Virus record (IMG/VR): IMGVR_UViG_2563366842_000005
Length of the DNA: 29,444 bases
Direction: 5' to 3' (one strand)
Source: a virus
Lineage: Duplodnaviria; Heunggongvirae; Uroviricota; Caudoviricetes
Each line of letters opens with the position of its first letter. The first letter of the stretch is position 1. The notes under the pieces are model-generated. The model was not told the DNA's origin. It saw nothing but the letters and a program-made list of their open reading frames with translations, and made no database searches. A program made the translations under genes and the position numbers. Shown piece by piece: positions 5,351 to 19,748 of this stretch.

Positions 5351-5564
5351 AAAGAAGATTTCCAATAATCAGAACAAGTCGGCTCCTGTTTAGTTACGAG
5401 CGACATTGCTCAGTGTATTCACTCGTTGGAATGAATACACAGTGCAGTGTTTATTAGTATGCCTGTCTTTTAACCACATCAGGCTCGGTGGTTCTCGTGT
5501 ACCCCTACAGCGAGAAATCGGATAAACTCTATTCACCCCTACAGAGAGCAAAAGAGAAACGCCG

Positions 5565-6146
5565 ATGAACAACTCATGGTGGCAGGAACTAATGCATTTT
5601 TTCCTGCAAGGAATGACACTTAAACAGTTGATTCATATGCTAATCATCCTGATCATATTGATTATTGTTATGCCTGTAAGCGTAAAAGAATGGATAAACC
5701 TGCATAATCCAGAAATCCTTCCTCATTACTGGATGTATTACATCCTGTTGTTTTGCGTTAGCTATGTGCTTAACGGCGTTGTTAATTCCGCTTATCACGC
5801 TGTGACTGTAAGAATTGAGATATTCGCTGCTCAGAAGCGCAAATCTAAAGAAGAGAAATACGTGCAAGATTTGTTTGATTCGTTAACTCTTGGAGAAAGA
5901 GCGTATTTGGCATTCGCTGTAGCCGCTAATAACCAGCTAAAGACAGAAAAGGGAAGCCCTGAAGCAATCTCATTGCTCGAAAAAGGGCTTCTTATTCGGG
6001 TACCTTCTGCTACTGGATATCCTGAAATCGACCGTTTTGTTATCCCGGAACGCTATAGAAATGAGTGCTACATTAGGTTTGCTGGGAAGAAAGACAGTCT
6101 TATGGATGAACTTATCGCTCAGGATAAGCATGGCAAAAACAAGTAA
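5565..6146 (+). CDS. sieB: Superinfection exclusion protein B
   Basis: 193-aa ORF on the strand opposite the pL operon, between ea10 and N as in lambda; hydrophobic segments (LIHMLIILIILIIVMPV, YWMYYILLFCVSYVLNGVV); recognised as lambda SieB. Confidence 0.8.
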   Translation: MNNSWWQELMHFFLQGMTLKQLIHMLIILIILIIVMPVSVKEWINLHNPEILPHYWMYYILLFCVSYVLNGVVNSAYHAVTVRIEIFAAQKRKSKEEKYVQDLFDSLTLGERAYLAFAVAANNQLKTEKGSPEAISLLEKGLLIRVPSATGYPEIDRFVIPERYRNECYIRFAGKKDSLMDELIAQDKHGKNK

Positions 6147-6162
6147 TTAGCAAATGAATTTA

Positions 6163-6471
6163 TCATCTCGCCGTCAGTTGTTTTGATTTCCGGTAGCCTG
6201 CCGCGTAAATAGCTACGTTTGGCAGGCAAACACTTCCACTGCATTCATCTACTTTCTTGCAGCGAAGGCTTCCGAGTGATATTGCTTTTTCAGAAAGGCT
6301 TAACCGCTTTCTCGGGTCTTCCTGAACAGGTTCCTCACTGTCTGTGCCGAAGATCGAATCGATGATGTTGCAGATGGAATCACGCTCGATGGCCAGCTTT
6401 CTGCGCCGCTCATGACGGCGAGTTTTGGCATTTCCTGCAAATGTTGATTTTCCGTACACGATTACCGTCAT
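6163..6471 (-). CDS. N: N-type transcription antiterminator (non-lambda allele with arginine-rich motif)
   Basis: Start re-set to ATG at 6469-6471 (GAGGAA SD upstream), giving 102 aa MTVIVYGKSTFAGNAKTRRHERRRKLAIERD...; arginine-rich motif near the N terminus as in N proteins; first gene downstream of nutL. Track start at 6555 is GTG. Confidence 0.8.
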   Translation of the reverse strand: MTVIVYGKSTFAGNAKTRRHERRRKLAIERDSICNIIDSIFGTDSEEPVQEDPRKRLSLSEKAISLGSLRCKKVDECSGSVCLPNVAIYAAGYRKSKQLTAR

Positions 6472-6587
6472 GATGTTTTCCTCATGTGAAATGGCTTTGG
6501 TGGTGATGCGCCAGATGCTGATCTTCTGGTTGCTGTCGTTACTGCTGCAATTCACATCACCCCAAACCCATCTCGTTTGGTATCTGT

Positions 6588-6626
6588 TCGCGCTTTGTCA
6601 GCGCATCATCGAAGTTAAAGAGCCTG
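6588..6626 (-). promoter_or_regulatory. nutL (boxA plus boxB hairpin)
   Basis: Minus strand reads GCTCTTTAAC (boxA-like) followed by hairpin GCGCtgacaaaGCGC; boxB loop shares GACAA with the nutR candidate. Confidence 0.55.
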
Positions 6627-6880
6627 CCAATCTGTTCCGTTTGGCTGCCAGCGTCCTGCTGATGGCGATTATAATGAACCAATAGTTCGATATTATCAAG
6701 AACTATAAGTACGAATTGTTTGTGGTTCATTAACTTAATGAGATATGTTTTTGATATGTAAAGGAATTTATTTTTGTAAAGATTGAAGATTGGTCAGTAG
6801 GAGAGAAAGAATTGTTTGCTGGCGTGTTAGTTCGTGGGTTAGCACATGTGCGGATGTTAAATAAGGTAGACGATCGTGAG
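6627..6880 (-). promoter_or_regulatory. pL/OL region (promoter and operators, not resolved)
   Basis: AT-rich 250 bp between the rex-slot terminator and nutL. Contains a TATAAT-like hexamer near 6668-6675 and an AGTACGA motif (6709-6715) also present twice in the cI-cro intergenic region. Confidence 0.4.
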
Positions 6881-6908
6881 GAAAAGAAAAACCGGCGCTG
6901 AGGCCGGG
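6881..6908 (-). terminator. Rho-independent terminator after the rex-slot gene
   Basis: Plus strand gaaaagaaaaaCCGGCgctgagGCCGG; on the minus strand a GC stem is followed by TTTTTCTTTTC, starting 6 nt after the stop codon at 6914-6916. Confidence 0.55.
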
Positions 6909-6913
6909 TATAA

Positions 6914-7813
6914 TTATTTGATTATTTCTTTTATAAAGACTTCTTTCGGTTGGTATTTTTTATCTGATGATTTGAGCTGGTACGTTATTGTTATATCAGC
7001 ACGTACAGAAAATTTACCTGCAAAATCTGATGGGTTTACGTTGGGGCCAAGAACCATATTTACTCTTCGATCTATTAATCCAGGGATAACAGCAGCCCAA
7101 CCTTTCTCTGGATTGTCGAGGTCTAATGCACGGATTTCAACATCAACATCAAAATGATCCTGAGTATATGACTCTGGTGTGAAGACAACTTCAGTTGGGG
7201 CTTTTTTAATGGTTTCAGCGGGAATGGTCACTGTACCACCCCCTGTACCTATGACCATCGTAGATCCTTCGTCTGCCCTAGCTGGGGCAAGCGTCTTAAT
7301 GGAACTTTTGGCAAGAGTCTTCTTATTGGTTACCGTGCTTTCTATGATTGCTTGAAGACGGTCAGGTGAAATATTAGCCTCACCGGCACCAATATTGATG
7401 ATTGTATTGTTATTTGCTTCAAAGTGGGAGGTGTTGCTTGGAGCCATAGCCTTAGTTGCTAGAACTAAGCCATATCCAACCAGACCAATAACAACAGCAC
7501 CAACGAGAGCGTTTCTCATTTTCCCATTTCCGATCTTTGCATGAGCGCCAGCAAGAAACTTGTCCATTTCTTCTTGGCTACCAAAGAGGAGTTTAATAAC
7601 AATATCTTCATAAAGGCTTCCTGCTTCTAATCGCGCAACATGCACCGATATATCAAGGATATTAGCCCCTGTCAGTTCCTGCAAAACACCTTCTGATTGT
7701 TTTGCGATGGCCTCCCACCCTTGAAGGGAGGTAATCACATCTTTGATGCTTACAGGTTCTTTAGTTGAATAATATATGTTTTCGGTAAAGGTTAAAGATA
7801 ATTCTTGGGACAT
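6914..7813 (-). CDS. Uncharacterised 299-aa single-pass membrane protein in the rexAB slot (candidate superinfection-exclusion or abortive-infection protein)
   Basis: ATG at 7811-7813 with GAGGG SD. About 100-aa N-terminal soluble region, one hydrophobic helix (ALVGAVVIGLVGYGLVLAT, residues about 102-120, lysine/arginine on the N side), then a 175-aa Thr/Gly/Ala-rich C-terminal domain. Visibly AT-rich versus flanking phage DNA. Co-directional with cI, between cI and pL/OL. No family or kinase motifs recognised. Confidence 0.7.
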   Translation of the reverse strand: MSQELSLTFTENIYYSTKEPVSIKDVITSLQGWEAIAKQSEGVLQELTGANILDISVHVARLEAGSLYEDIVIKLLFGSQEEMDKFLAGAHAKIGNGKMRNALVGAVVIGLVGYGLVLATKAMAPSNTSHFEANNNTIINIGAGEANISPDRLQAIIESTVTNKKTLAKSSIKTLAPARADEGSTMVIGTGGGTVTIPAETIKKAPTEVVFTPESYTQDHFDVDVEIRALDLDNPEKGWAAVIPGLIDRRVNMVLGPNVNPSDFAGKFSVRADITITYQLKSSDKKYQPKEVFIKEIIK

Positions 7814-7926
7814 CCGAGCCCTCGCTGTTTCTTTCGATTTGCTGTGTTAAGCTAATATTTTAATATCCATGTTTCTGTTTGCTTGCAGTGTGTTTCTCAC
7901 CACCATCCAAACGTACTGGTTACTAG

Positions 7927-9121
<1,195 letters not shown>

Positions 9122-9141
9122 CTAGCTATGTGATGATGAAG

Positions 9142-9849
9142 TCATGAACTTTTCAGCCATTCCCTGGCCTCGATGTCATCTAGGTGGCGAGATTGCTTCA
9201 GAATACCAGCTACATACTCCACCTTTGCTACTTGATGATAAGGCAACGTTATTGGCCTGTGGTCTTGGTTGATGCTTGTAAATTGGTATTCTCCGTCTCT
9301 GTCATAGCCAAGAACCTTGATCATGTTGTGCCCTTCAATGGTTCTGACAAACACCTCATCACCTGGGAATACTTTGGTGTTAGGCTCAATGAGTACATAT
9401 TCTCCTGATTTTATTCTGGGCCACATGCTGTCTCCTTTTACACGAAGACCAAAGGCATCTGGATCATCGCTATAAATCTTGAGCCACCCATCGCGCTCTT
9501 CGGTCATCTCGATGGCACCATCAACACCAAGAATTGCCTCACCAACCACGCGCACTAACCCTTTTTTTAATTTGCCAACAATTGAAAAAGTATCTTCATC
9601 ATTCGCTCCATTTAACGAAGTGCCGTGCTGAAGCCAAACAACATCAACGTTTAGAAATTTCGCAAGCGCATTCATTTTTTCCTGGCGTGGTAAAGACTCA
9701 GCATTAAACCATTTGCTAACGCCTTTGGACGAAAGAGAAAGGGCACGGGCTATGGCCATTCCCCTACCATGTTCATCAAGACCAGCTTCTTTACAGGCTT
9801 GCGCTAGCCGCTGGGCGAATTCTTTGCGCACTTTTTCATTCTGAACCAT
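9142..9849 (-). CDS. cI: CI-type prophage repressor (HTH plus LexA-like S24 autopeptidase domain)
   Basis: 235-aa ORF divergent from cro. N-terminal HTH region and C-terminal S24 motifs (GDSMWP serine region, lysine further downstream). ATG at 9847-9849 has no SD, consistent with a leaderless pRM-type transcript. Confidence 0.9.
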   Translation of the reverse strand: MVQNEKVRKEFAQRLAQACKEAGLDEHGRGMAIARALSLSSKGVSKWFNAESLPRQEKMNALAKFLNVDVVWLQHGTSLNGANDEDTFSIVGKLKKGLVRVVGEAILGVDGAIEMTEERDGWLKIYSDDPDAFGLRVKGDSMWPRIKSGEYVLIEPNTKVFPGDEVFVRTIEGHNMIKVLGYDRDGEYQFTSINQDHRPITLPYHQVAKVEYVAGILKQSRHLDDIEAREWLKSS

Positions 9850-13691: not shown

Positions 13692-14033
13692 ATGGATTAT
13701 TCACAGTTAAGTGATTTTGAAATTAACAGAATGGTAGGAGACATAATTTTTAAAGGCCTTTGGGCAAGTAAACCGGAAACATCAGGGAATAACACCAACA
13801 AATGGTATTACGGAAATGCTGATACAACTTTTGAGCCATTAAATCATTTGCCTGACTACTGCAATGATCCGAGCGCTTCATGGCCGATTATTGAGAAATA
13901 CAGGATTTCTATCTTAGACCAGTTAACTGAATGGTGTGTGGATGCAAAAGGCGTAAGCCCAATATTTGATACCAGACCTCTCCGCGCCGCCATTATTGTC
14001 TTTCTCCTGATGCAGGAGGCCAATAATGCTTAG
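13692..14033 (+). CDS. Hypothetical nin-region protein (NinX-like by position)
   Basis: 113 aa from ATG 13692 (GAGGA SD); AT-rich; sits where P22-type nin regions carry ninX. Family assignment is not verified. Confidence 0.5.
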
Positions 14034-14220
14034 CCCATCTCAATCCCTTCAATACCTGAAAGGAAGCATAGAGCGGGCTTCAATGTGCACAGAGTGGATT
14101 CTATCTAGGTTTAGCGCATACAGAAGATTGCCGGTAAAGGGCATGCCAAGCAAGTCGATGCTGCATATGCAAAAGAATGCGCGCGGGAAGGTATGGCGAG
14201 AACGCAGGTTATCTGGCTGA
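14026..14220 (+). CDS. ninF: NinF-like small protein
   Basis: 64-aa ORF; the first 24 residues ([24 protein letters not shown]) resemble lambda NinF as recalled, the remainder diverges; may be a variant or a frameshifted remnant. Confidence 0.4.
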
Positions 14221-14239
14221 AAGAGGGGGTAATTAAGGC

Positions 14240-14602
14240 GTGAATACTTACCACATCACACTACCCTGGCCTCCGAGCAATAATCGCTATTATCGCCATA
14301 ATCGCGGGCGCACGCACGTCAGCGCAGAGGGGCAGGCATACCGCGATAACGTCGCCCGAATCATTAAAAACGCAATGCTGGATATCGGCCTGGCGATGCC
14401 TGTGAAAATCCGCATTGAGTGCCACATGCCGGATCGCCGTCGCCGTGACCTGGATAATCTGCAAAAAGCCGCTTTTGACGCACTCACCAAAGCAGGTTTC
14501 TGGCTGGATGATGCTCAGGTCGTTGATTACCGCGTTGTGAAGATGCCTGTTACCAAAGGTGGGAGGCTGGAATTGACCATCACCGAAATGGGGAATGAAT
14601 GA
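14240..14602 (+). CDS. rusA: RusA Holliday-junction resolvase
   Basis: 120 aa from GTG 14240 ([42 protein letters not shown]...), matches E. coli DLP12 RusA. Confidence 0.9.
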
Positions 14603-15358: not shown

Positions 15359-15883
15359 TTATTGTTTGACCCATAATAGTTCATTGACATTGAATCCCAA
15401 TTTTTGAGCAGTACGCACATAGTCTGCTTTTACATTATCTGGAATAGTTGGAGTCCGTGCCAGAATCCATAGGTATTCTCTGTTCGGACCACTGACAAGA
15501 GCATACTTATACTCATCATCCAGTTTGATTACATTATAGCCACCATAGAAGGGGCCAAAAAACGAAACCTTCAACGCTGCAGTTGTATTATCTCCTGTAA
15601 AGTATGCTTTACCTTCGCTCTCGCTCCATTTGTTTTTCGTTGGGTCATATCCACGATTAAGTACACTAATCCCTCCGTCGTTCCGTTTCCCATAAGTGGC
15701 GCTGACCTGTTCCAGACCACGTTCAAATCGGTTCTCAAGCCGAGCTATTTCATACCATTTTCCGAGGTAGCGGTTGGTGTCAAAATTTGTAATCGGCTGC
15801 ACACCTTTAGGTGGTGTCGGGGCCTTACATGCTATCAGAGTGAAAGAGAGTGCAATGCCAGTCAACACAGGCCATAACTTCAT
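15359..15883 (-). CDS. blc: Blc-like bacterial lipocalin, outer-membrane lipoprotein
   Basis: 174 aa with lipoprotein signal and lipobox (MKLWPVLTGIALSFTLIAC) and the lipocalin motif NFDTNRYLGKWYEIARLENRFERG; roughly two-thirds identical to E. coli Blc by eye. Opposite strand to the late operon. Confidence 0.85.
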   Translation of the reverse strand: MKLWPVLTGIALSFTLIACKAPTPPKGVQPITNFDTNRYLGKWYEIARLENRFERGLEQVSATYGKRNDGGISVLNRGYDPTKNKWSESEGKAYFTGDNTTAALKVSFFGPFYGGYNVIKLDDEYKYALVSGPNREYLWILARTPTIPDNVKADYVRTAQKLGFNVNELLWVKQ

Positions 15884-16075: not shown

Positions 16076-17035
16076 ATGATAAAAAAACCTGTCGTTGGGA
16101 TCAGTGGTTGTTTGGCCGGTTCTTCTGTCCGTTTTGATGGTGGTCACAAAAGAGCTAGCTTTTTAATGGACAAATTACTGGAATGGGTAACATTCAAACC
16201 AGTATGTCCGGAAATGGCTATAGGGCTTCCAGTTCCGCGTCCTGCTCTACGTCTTGTTCGCTCGGCGCAAGGAAATATACGGATGTGTTTCAGCCACGAC
16301 CAGAATGAGGATGTTACAGAGAAAATGACAGAGTTTAGTCGTTCTTATCTTGACAAATTAAAGGATGTATCGGGATTTGTGGTTTGTGCAAAATCTCCTA
16401 GCTGTGGTATGGAACGCGTGCGTGTATATGATGAAAATGGTAATCGTGGTCGTAAAGATGGAGTGGGACTATTTACGAGCACGTTGATGGAAAGGTTTTC
16501 CTGGCTACCGGTTGAAGAGGATGGGCGACTACATGATCCAGTGCTTCGTGAAAACTTTGTTGAAAGAGTATTTGCTTTACATGAGCTCAATCATCTTTAT
16601 AAAGCGAAATTATCAAGAAGGGAATTATTAGCTTTTCATAGCCGTTATAAGCTTCAGTTGTTGGCGCATAGCCAGGCCGGTTATAAAGAGATGGGGCCAT
16701 TTGTGGCTGCAATACATGAGTGGGCAGACCTTGAATCATACTTTGAGGTGTATCGTGAGAAGCTGATGGCGATTCTCAGAAAACCTGCATCACGTAAAAA
16801 TCACACGAATGTGCTGATGCATATACAGGGATATTTTAGTAACTGCTTAAATACACGTCAGCGTAAAGAGTTGAGCGATGTTATACTTAACTATCGAGCT
16901 GGCACGCTACCTCTTCTTGCGCCATTAACTTTGCTGAAGCATTACTTGGCAGAGTATCCTGATGATTATTTGCTTATACAGAATTACTTCCACCCCTATC
17001 CTGATGAACTGGCTCTAAGACTCTTGGTGAACTAG
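16076..17035 (+). CDS. Two-domain protein: Cys-containing DUF523 (TudS/YbbK-like) N-terminal domain fused to a DUF1722 (YbgA-like) C-terminal domain
   Basis: 319 aa, ATG 16076 with AAGGGG SD. N-terminal region carries conserved-looking cysteines (GISGCLAG, VCPEMAIG, CAKSPSCGMERV) as in DUF523 Fe-S proteins; C-terminal half is helical and basic. Domain assignment is from memory and needs an HMM search. Confidence 0.55.
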   Translation: MIKKPVVGISGCLAGSSVRFDGGHKRASFLMDKLLEWVTFKPVCPEMAIGLPVPRPALRLVRSAQGNIRMCFSHDQNEDVTEKMTEFSRSYLDKLKDVSGFVVCAKSPSCGMERVRVYDENGNRGRKDGVGLFTSTLMERFSWLPVEEDGRLHDPVLRENFVERVFALHELNHLYKAKLSRRELLAFHSRYKLQLLAHSQAGYKEMGPFVAAIHEWADLESYFEVYREKLMAILRKPASRKNHTNVLMHIQGYFSNCLNTRQRKELSDVILNYRAGTLPLLAPLTLLKHYLAEYPDDYLLIQNYFHPYPDELALRLLVN

Positions 17036-17353: not shown

Positions 17354-18085
17354 ATGCCATGCATATGTTCTATCATTTTGGTTTTGAACTCGTTTGATAT
17401 CCGGCTTGGTAAAGAAAAAATCTCTCTAAAAAAAGGAAGTGTTGTTGCTATAGAATACAATTTAAAAGTTTTCTTTTCTTCAAATAAAGATAATATAATG
17501 ATCGTGGATATTGAAGAGAAAACAGTTAATGACTTCTTTAAAAACAATACACTCTCACCTTTTTCTGTAAGAAGATTTTATTCAGCATACTTGATAGTAA
17601 ACTGTACAGACTATTCATTGTTAAAGAACTTGATAGGTTGCTTGAATTGTGATGGTGAAACTACGGCTGTAGTTAAAAATTCAATATTATTTGCATGTCT
17701 TGCTATTTTATCCTCGGAAAAAATGTTTCAGAGTTTTTTGTTTGGGTGTCTTAATAGTTTAGGAAGCAAAGTTAAGGCTATTATTCACTCGGACATATCT
17801 GCAGCATGGAGACTTTGTGATATTTCTTCAAGACTATGTCTGAGTGAAAGTTTGTTAAAAAGAAAACTAAAACACGAAGGCTTATCATTTAGCAAATTAA
17901 TTCTTGAAGAACGAATGGTGATGGCTGAAAGGTTATTAAGCTACAATTTCTATCCTGTTGGGAAAGTTGCTAAAATATGTGGTTATGAAAGCGCGTCATA
18001 TTTTATAAGTGTTTTCAGAAGATATTTTGGTGTTCCCCCCCATGAATATTCATCAAGATTTTTTTTAGAAAAAGGCAAGATGTAA
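17354..18085 (+). CDS. AraC-family transcriptional regulator (AppY/EnvY/Rns-like)
   Basis: C-terminal AraC-type HTH region (KVAKICGYESASYFISVFRRYFGVPPHEY). Very AT-rich gene with an AT-rich upstream region. Start ambiguous: ATG 17354 after an AGGTGGA SD, or GTG 17345. Confidence 0.75.
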   Translation: MPCICSIILVLNSFDIRLGKEKISLKKGSVVAIEYNLKVFFSSNKDNIMIVDIEEKTVNDFFKNNTLSPFSVRRFYSAYLIVNCTDYSLLKNLIGCLNCDGETTAVVKNSILFACLAILSSEKMFQSFLFGCLNSLGSKVKAIIHSDISAAWRLCDISSRLCLSESLLKRKLKHEGLSFSKLILEERMVMAERLLSYNFYPVGKVAKICGYESASYFISVFRRYFGVPPHEYSSRFFLEKGKM

Positions 18086-19454: not shown

Positions 19455-19748
19455 TTATTGTGAGCAATAGACACGCGCTTCCAGCGGAGTATAAATGCCT
19501 AAAGTAATAAAACCGAGCAATCCATTTACGAATGTTTGCTGGGTTTCTGTTTTAACAACATTTTCTGCGCCGCCACAAATTTTGGCTGCATCAACAGTTT
19601 TCTCCTGTCCAATTCCCGAAACGAAGAAGTGATGGGTGATGGTTTCCTTTGGTGTTACTGCTGTCGGTTTGTTTCCAACAGTAAACGTCTGTTGAGCACA
19701 TCCTGTAATAAGCATTGCCAGAGCGGCAGAAAACAACATTTTTTTCAT
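19455..19748 (-). CDS. bor: Bor lipoprotein (serum-resistance, Iss family)
   Basis: 97 aa from ATG 19748 (MKKMLFSAALAMLITGCAQQTFTV...); lipobox ITGC; position and orientation as lambda bor. Confidence 0.85.
   Translation of the reverse strand: MKKMLFSAALAMLITGCAQQTFTVGNKPTAVTPKETITHHFFVSGIGQEKTVDAAKICGGAENVVKTETQQTFVNGLLGFITLGIYTPLEARVYCSQ

Follow-up and report, generated by a model that had tools for sequence, protein, structure and literature searches.

A possible superinfection-exclusion role for an uncharacterised single-pass membrane protein encoded beside the repressor gene of a lambda-like prophage

Introduction

What is encoded by a lambda-like prophage that has a single gene in the place where lambda carries rexA and rexB? 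The question is raised by an open reading frame (ORF) of 299 amino acids (aa) at positions 6914-7813, minus strand, of IMG/VR virus record IMGVR_UViG_2563366842_000005, a 29,444-nucleotide (nt) stretch of Caudoviricetes DNA that was analysed at its full length and is called the window here. An earlier note on this DNA had proposed that the gene encodes a lysogen-expressed membrane protein that blocks superinfection. To our knowledge, all characterised occupants of the slot after the repressor gene (rexAB, bstA, and stk) are phage-exclusion functions.

We propose, with a confidence that falls a little short of even, that the product is an envelope protein made in lysogens that excludes superinfecting phages, probably at the step of DNA entry. 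The basis for this proposal is genomic context. Exclusion is favoured because of the known occupants of the slot and the genes found near this one, and because the protein shows no recognisable cytoplasmic effector; action at entry is favoured because the protein has a large conserved part that is predicted to be periplasmic and no recognisable cytoplasmic enzyme.

Results

The gene lies between cI and pL/OL, which is the place of rexAB in lambda. The features that define this placement are as follows.

6914-7813, minus strand: the 299-aa ORF (WP_000076840.1; gp50 of phage 1H12; PHROG 4506), with its ATG at 7813 and its stop codon at 6914-6916
7819-7823, minus strand: Shine-Dalgarno sequence GAGGG, 5 nt 5' of the ATG, read from the sequence
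6882-6907, minus strand: intrinsic terminator-like hairpin CCGGCCTCAGCGCCGG with a T-run, directly 3' of the stop codon of the ORF
9142-9849, minus strand: cI-type repressor gene (HTH_3 and Peptidase_S24 by Pfam), which heads the immunity operon
6671-6699, minus strand: pL candidate TTGATA-17-CATTAT within operator-like repeats (OL), from a consensus scan
6163-6471, minus strand: N-like antiterminator gene, which opens the leftward early operon
5565-6146, plus strand: sieB (superinfection exclusion protein B)

The order in lambda is cI, a spacer of 112 base pairs (bp), rexA-rexB, and OL. Copies of the region that are free of insertion sequences (IS), those of phage 1H12 and E. coli 118UI, have a spacer of 129 bp separating the ORF from cI, in which no terminator-like hairpin was seen. 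The pL candidate is flanked by operator-like CGTAC/GTTCG half-sites, and the same half-sites are present at OR. The window and the layout of lambda bear out the placement given in the earlier note, in which the ORF was between cI and pL/OL, co-directional with cI, and in the rexAB slot, and the sieB gene that was reported nearby is indeed there as a separate gene. At 6425-6685 on the plus strand, opposite N and overlapping pL/OL and the N leader, is the counterpart of a hypothetical protein of 71-86 aa that is called in RefSeq relatives (WP_000971595.1); this call is probably a spurious annotation.

The ORF is a true gene with its own signals. A spurious ORF was ruled out by the depth of the family, at least 662 clusters at 50% identity that share its length and architecture. 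The ATG at 7813 is the earliest in-frame start, and the length, start, and GAGGG sequence that had been reported for the ORF all stand. So does its terminator, previously placed at 6881-6908, which is the hairpin and T-run at 6882-6907. This terminator-like hairpin could mark the end of the immunity transcript and be the analogue of lambda tIMM. The ORF was also said to be visibly AT-rich. Its GC content of 41.2% is below that of the window (48.8%) and of cI (45.3%), but the bias is modest and sieB is at 40.0%.

In the native arrangement the ORF would be the distal gene of the cI immunity operon. It would be transcribed together with cI from PRM and PRE, with transcription stopping at its own terminator, and the product would hence be made in lysogens.

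The protein belongs to a family that has a number and no assigned function. Its sequence is the same as those of WP_000076840.1 and gp50 of phage 1H12, and it matches PHROG 4506 over its full length (residues 1-299 against positions 1-300 of the 300-position profile, E 1e-170). The earlier statement that no family could be recognised therefore needs qualification, since PHROG 4506 exists, but its substance holds: membership supplies a name without an explanation, and there was no significant match in Pfam and no match in NCBIfam. The best Pfam hit was DUF1206 (E 0.007, 16.9 bits against a cutoff of 26.2 bits), over the transmembrane region, followed below threshold by Bromo_TP_like (E 0.13) and DUF3082 (E 0.15). 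Neither Pfam nor NCBIfam gave a match to the SieB family. With Pfam, there was no match to Pkinase at E values up to 10, in agreement with the reported lack of Hanks-kinase motifs, and none to KilA-N. PADLOC-DB 2.0.0 (5,027 models) gave 0 matching families at E values up to 10. A profile of the family searched against the PDB sequences had a best E value of 0.3. Confident homology to a characterised non-defence protein, one of the findings that would refute the proposal according to the earlier note, did not emerge from the Pfam, NCBIfam, or PDB searches. The accession WP_000076840 was not found in the literature searched or in the DefensePredictor supplements; Brenes & Laub 2025 was outside that search.

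The protein is predicted to cross the inner membrane once, with its N-terminus inside and its C-terminus outside. A confident AlphaFold2 model built from 34 homologues (mean pLDDT 84, pTM 0.69) and a hydropathy scan divide it into three parts.

7529-7813, minus strand: residues 1 to about 95, N-terminal alpha/beta domain (beta-alpha-beta-beta-alpha), predicted to be cytoplasmic (AlphaFold2, pLDDT about 87-92)
7454-7510, minus strand: residues 102-120, single transmembrane helix ALVGAVVIGLVGYGLVLAT, glycine-rich (G105, G110, G113, and G115)
6917-7453, minus strand: residues 121-299, predicted to be periplasmic (AlphaFold2 and positive-inside count)

Residues 102-120 are the only window of the hydropathy scan above 1.6 on the Kyte-Doolittle scale (score 2.24; no second window was found), and they are the one hydrophobic helix that had been noticed at about 102-120. 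In the model, helical structure extends from the membrane segment to about residue 180 and is followed by a beta-rich domain at 186-297. The juxtamembrane motif ANNNTIINIGAGE (residues 133-145) is kept in the closer relatives. The flank on the N-terminal side of the helix has a mean of 3.15 lysines and arginines over 189 family members, that on the C-terminal side has 1.13, and the N-terminal flank is the richer one in 85% of members. This excess is what predicts a bitopic protein with N-in/C-out topology. The C-terminal region, which the earlier note had called a Thr/Gly/Ala-rich domain, has no notable enrichment; its commonest residues are I, T, A, K, and V, each at 7-10%. Two other kinds of envelope protein were considered and set aside. 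A lipoprotein or secreted protein does not fit an N-terminus that is not hydrophobic and has no lipobox, and the 100-aa N-terminal domain and the orientation within the immunity operon are unfit for a spanin or holin.

Searches with the predicted structure returned viral proteins. No fold match to the model was found among solved structures. A structure search of BFVD matched two uncharacterised viral proteins, and the second-best viral structure match (Foldseek) was a phage protein with a DUF6575 domain (E 2.9e-4, TM 0.42). In PMC9519451, DUF6575 figures among the domains found in E. coli defence proteins that have been validated by experiment. At the sequence level, the 299-aa protein did not match DUF6575, and none of the PD systems in Table S2 of that paper (Vassallo 2022) is a single gene of 900 bp.

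The family is large, uniform in length, and spread over many hosts. A word-indexed search gave 56 relatives (29-98% identity); with an exhaustive profile search the family grew to at least 662 clusters at 50% identity, of which 286 had E < 1e-30. Nearly all members are about 300 aa long and align end to end, with the position of the helix conserved. Conserved residues are found in the N-terminal domain (L30, G65, S66, and F77), in the helix (G115, 89%), and in the C-terminal part (P177, P206, R228-A-x-D231-x-D233, G238-W239, and R250). The hosts include Enterobacterales, Pseudomonas, Cupriavidus, Pandoraea, Zoogloea, Dechloromonas, Nitrosomonas, Methylocaldum, and Sedimenticola, together with one Desulfuromonadales genome.

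The gene behaves as portable cargo. Among 5,426 complete E. coli genomes it is present in 150 (about 3%), always at an identity of at least 99%, and among the sequenced lambda-like phages in GenBank 11 genomes carry it, namely the Lambda_* series and 1H12 (genus Jouyvirus). Hundreds of genomes share the immunity and recombination DNA on either side, but only those 150 have the gene. We surveyed the context of homologues at 66 loci from genomes and viral contigs, which gave 32 assessable lineages after clustering at 80% identity. A cI-like repressor gene was directly upstream on the same strand at 32 of the 66 loci (median gap 146 bp), many of the direct upstream neighbours having HTH and S24 domains by Pfam, and it was the only neighbour family that recurred over the whole range of identity from 25 to 100%. 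In 14 of the 32 lineages a cI-type gene heads the same-strand run that contains the homologue.

Other homologues are in other slots. One is between the antiterminator gene Q and the holin gene (locus L081, 6001-6933), one follows a tail-chaperone-like DUF1799 gene and precedes a long tail gene (L009, 4932-5891), those in Mu-like phages adjoin head or lysis genes (L074, 6001-6900, in the head region; L078; L015), and one is in a small, satellite-like AlpA-DUF3987-MobA (AlpA-primase-MobA) element (L076, 5669-6583). In a Pseudomonas poae prophage (L012) the homologue shares its post-repressor cluster with a gene of the T4 Imm family, two genes downstream of it (6512-7135), which encodes a 207-aa Imm_superinfect protein (PF14373, E 5e-18). 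Neither the 299-aa protein nor the 132 relatives matched PF14373 themselves. At another locus (L079) a gene with a staphylococcal-nuclease-like SNase domain (5371-5922) lies between the cI-type repressor gene and the homologue and could itself be another candidate for exclusion. Across the 66 loci there is no conserved partner gene, and a conserved two-gene system was rejected for this reason. The gene has the properties of a moron, namely patchy presence among similar phages, at least five different slots, and a terminator of its own. Based on its presence in several optional-cargo slots and its patchy distribution, we conclude that it is portable cargo of temperate mobile elements and not a core phage function.

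The recurrent repressor neighbour could be read as a sign that the protein regulates the phage's own cycle. It would then be a transmembrane regulator with a layout like that of RseA, a membrane-anchored anti-sigma factor in which about 100 cytoplasmic residues precede a helix near residue 100 and a periplasmic domain, and it would link a signal from the envelope to the stability of the repressor, to induction, or to the timing of lysis. That the repressor gene is the only conserved neighbour, that some homologues are beside lysis cassettes, and that conserved residues are found on both sides of the membrane are consistent with such a role. However, the protein has no sequence or fold similarity to anti-sigma, anti-repressor, or signalling domains, and in many lineages the gene is far from any repressor gene. 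Furthermore, lambda-like phages without the gene keep otherwise the same immunity regions, as the hundreds of genomes with shared flanks attest, which argues that the gene is not a core regulatory part. We consider regulation of the phage cycle very unlikely.

A moron might instead serve the host in ways that have nothing to do with phages. The protein could be a lysogenic-conversion or host-fitness factor that alters the cell surface, stress responses, or interactions with a host, like the lambda morons bor/iss and lom. Its occurrence in several slots fits this, and one of these is the Q-holin slot, which has toxin or virulence cargo in other lambdoid phages, including Stx. The prophage in the window also has cargo of this general kind elsewhere, at the following positions.

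15359-15883 (minus strand), 16076-17035 (plus strand), and 17354-18085 (plus strand): cargo trio between antiterminator gene Q and the holin gene, encoding lipocalin-family, YbgA-family (DUF523/DUF1722), and helix-turn-helix (HTH) proteins; coordinates deduced from an annotated genome of 99.9% identity (L073)
19455-19748, minus strand: iss, encoding a bor-like serum-survival lipoprotein, just after the lysis cassette, from the annotation of L073; a further lysogen-expressed moron of the same prophage

The lack of a match to any defence-database model is in keeping with conversion as well. Against it are the free-living environmental hosts of part of the family (Nitrosomonas, Zoogloea, Methylocaldum, and Desulfuromonadales), in which virulence towards an animal host makes no sense, and the tight linkage to repressor genes and the Imm-type exclusion neighbour. 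On balance, a conversion or fitness role is unlikely.

The protein resembles known exclusion systems in its setting and differs from all of them in its makeup. Like lambda rexA-rexB, the gene is downstream of and co-directional with cI, after a spacer of about 110-130 bp, and has a terminator before OL/pL; like the products of these genes, one of which is located in the membrane, its product is a predicted membrane protein. Unlike them, it is one gene and not two, with no two-gene module of a sensor and a polytopic partner, and RexB is small and polytopic whereas the 299-aa protein is bitopic with large soluble domains. Alignments of the family with hhalign gave probabilities of 0.1% for RexA and 1.2% for RexB.

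P22 SieA, HK97 gp15, and T4 Imm are inner-membrane proteins that block the entry of phage DNA. The likeness here is that of a single prophage inner-membrane protein carried as cargo. In addition, the homologue in L009 is in the tail-chaperone/tape-measure position, as with HK97 gp15, and the homologue in L012 has the T4 Imm relative for a close neighbour. These three proteins are 62 to about 165 aa long, in contrast to the 299 aa found here, with a folded domain on either side of the membrane, and hhalign probabilities were 0.6% for SieA and 0.1% for HK97 gp15. The Stk kinase of 933W is a single-gene occupant of the place beside a prophage repressor gene, and BstA is described as a single-gene module in such a place (PMC8585504). 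Both are soluble, with a kinase and a KilA-N domain, respectively; the 299-aa protein has a transmembrane helix, neither of these domains, and no PADLOC match. HepS (Nature, 2026), a HEPN protein, and SNIPE, a DUF4041/GIY-YIG nuclease, were considered as relatives and are unrelated.

By analogy, the 299-aa protein is rexAB-like in its position and likely to be SieA/gp15/Imm-like in its action, and it falls outside all of these families by sequence. That the immunity region of this prophage has its exclusion cargo in the form of an unrelated and structurally unmatched protein, from an uncharacterised family, is a view that we hold tentatively, at slightly less than even confidence.

Sharing a slot with rexAB also brings up abortive infection. 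The protein would sense an infection, the glycine-rich helix would oligomerise into a pore or collapse the membrane potential, and the cell would die before phage are released, making the protein a one-protein analogue of RexA/RexB. The small-residue motifs of the helix (G105, G110, G113, and the 89% conserved G115) are of a type that often mediates helix packing, the globular domains that AlphaFold2 places on both sides of the membrane are possible sensors, and the recurrent IS insertions in or beside the gene (described below) could mean that carriage has a cost. On the other hand, there is only one helix per chain, the hhalign probabilities for RexA and RexB are at most 1.2%, and no known abortive-infection or effector domain was found with Pfam or PADLOC. 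The IS insertions are few (2 of 150 copies), and the neighbouring sieB has been struck too. Together, these points make abortive infection rather unlikely, although less so than conversion.

In the window, the gene is separated from cI by an insertion sequence. A complete IS5 lies between cI and the ORF, 17 bp past the cI stop codon, and was delimited by comparison with the IS-free phage 1H12 and E. coli 118UI. The earlier note did not mention it.

7927-9121, plus strand: IS5, complete, 1195 bp
7959-8975, plus strand: IS5 transposase gene
7923-7926 and 9122-9125: the two copies of the CTAG target duplication
7814-7926, minus strand: what remains beside the ORF of the native spacer between cI and the ORF, 113 nt including the CTAG copy at 7923-7926

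A consensus scan of the 113 nt left 5' of the ATG found no sigma-70-like promoter, and there is a terminator-like hairpin within the cI-proximal end of IS5 (9089-9077). Since IS5 parts the ORF from PRM and PRE and no promoter was found in the leader, expression from PRM and PRE in this lysogen is doubtful. IS5 may have uncoupled the ORF from the repressor promoter here, leaving it silent or poorly expressed. Thus, lysogen expression, as proposed in the earlier note, would be expected of the IS-free arrangement and is doubtful for this copy. A search of 5,426 complete E. coli genomes found the IS5 junction of the window in none of them.

Insertions have also occurred independently in sister prophages. 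The ORF is interrupted by IS5 in one (L002, NZ_OZ546993) and by IS1 in another (L072, NZ_CP090319), and in a third (L071, NZ_CP145636) IS5 is within sieB. Disruption of the ORF by IS1 or IS5 in 2 of the 150 E. coli copies indicates that the gene is dispensable. The insertions in this left part of the immunity region may reflect a cost of lysogen-expressed membrane genes or plain IS traffic, and the numbers are too small to argue for a cost.

It follows that the copy in the window might be decaying or silent cargo, unexpressed because of IS5 and without current function, whatever the role of the family. In favour of this are the 1195-bp IS5 that separates cI from the ORF, with an orientation antisense to transcription of the ORF and with the hairpin at 9089-9077, and the retained leader in which no promoter was detected. 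Against it, the ORF is intact, as are its ribosome-binding site and terminator, all three being identical to their counterparts in sequenced phage genomes, and IS5 insertions are known to switch on neighbouring genes in some contexts. We give silence of this copy an even chance. Because this explanation is about expression and not about function, it is compatible with exclusion as the role of the protein.

Exclusion at the envelope would work as follows. The product would span the inner membrane through its glycine-rich helix, with about 100 N-terminal residues forming a cytoplasmic domain. Most of its mass would be periplasmic, in a part of about 175 residues that ends in the beta-rich domain. 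The periplasmic domain would hinder incoming phage DNA from crossing the inner membrane. Its target could be the tail tip, the tape-measure or ejection proteins, or a host membrane component that these use. The action would be like that of P22 SieA, HK97 gp15, and T4 Imm, by an unrelated protein.

A more elaborate reading, which seems to us decidedly unlikely, is that the family is a new, widespread single-protein class of trans-envelope immunity sensors. In such a protein the periplasmic beta domain would sense a tail tip, a tape-measure protein, or envelope damage, and a signal passing through the glycine-rich helix to the cytoplasmic domain would trigger exclusion, suicide, or prophage induction. 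The R-A-x-D-x-D...G-W motif would be on the periplasmic side and G65-S66 on the cytoplasmic side, the layout would be anti-sigma-like, and the combination of folds would be one unseen in solved structures.

Several observations weigh against exclusion at the envelope. Every region of the protein has a mean pairwise identity of 21-28%, with no hypervariable domain, and such even conservation is unusual for a protein that must recognise diverse phages. Some homologues are in late operons beside lysis or head genes, where expression in a lysogen is not obvious. The topology is a positive-inside prediction only. The zero count against the PADLOC-DB models belongs here as well, and the PADLOC candidate PDC-S42 matched weakly in only 2 of 132 distant relatives (E 5.9e-6 and 2.9e-5). 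Of these matches, one was kept when the set was halved, the signal was lost in queries of about 16 concatenated proteins, and PDC-S42 was not mentioned in the literature searched. We treat the resemblances of the family to PDC-S42 and DUF6575 as leads only. Lastly, there is the state of the gene itself, with IS5 between it and cI in the window, a leader without a detected promoter, and the IS-disrupted copies in E. coli. The proposal of the earlier note that the protein blocks superinfection draws its support from context (the rexAB slot, portability as cargo, and the Imm-type neighbour in L012), with the lack of a defence-database match on the other side.

The prophage has at least one other irregularity. 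A truncated DUF1364 pseudogene remnant is in the nin region 5' of rusA, at 13695-14243 in the window by identity to 3496-4044 of L073, which suggests that the prophage has some scars of decay or recombination.

Discussion

The slot after the repressor gene has repeatedly yielded exclusion systems (rexAB, bstA, and stk), and the occupant described here is unmatched in Pfam, NCBIfam, PADLOC-DB 2.0.0, and solved structures. The reach of its family is considerable, with at least 662 clusters in gamma- and beta-proteobacteria and beyond, and presence in about 3% of complete E. coli genomes. Specialists would expect cargo without a known function in this slot; what the size of the family, the linkage to repressor genes, and the two-sided membrane architecture add is a clean and cheap experimental target. 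If the gene had no phage phenotype, its tight linkage to repressor genes would itself need explaining. If superinfection exclusion is indeed its function, the family would be a new membrane-acting, single-gene class of defence with a new fold, and a handle on the step of genome delivery that it targets. It would then also be relevant to the prediction of host range in phage therapy and to the annotation of thousands of hypothetical prophage genes.

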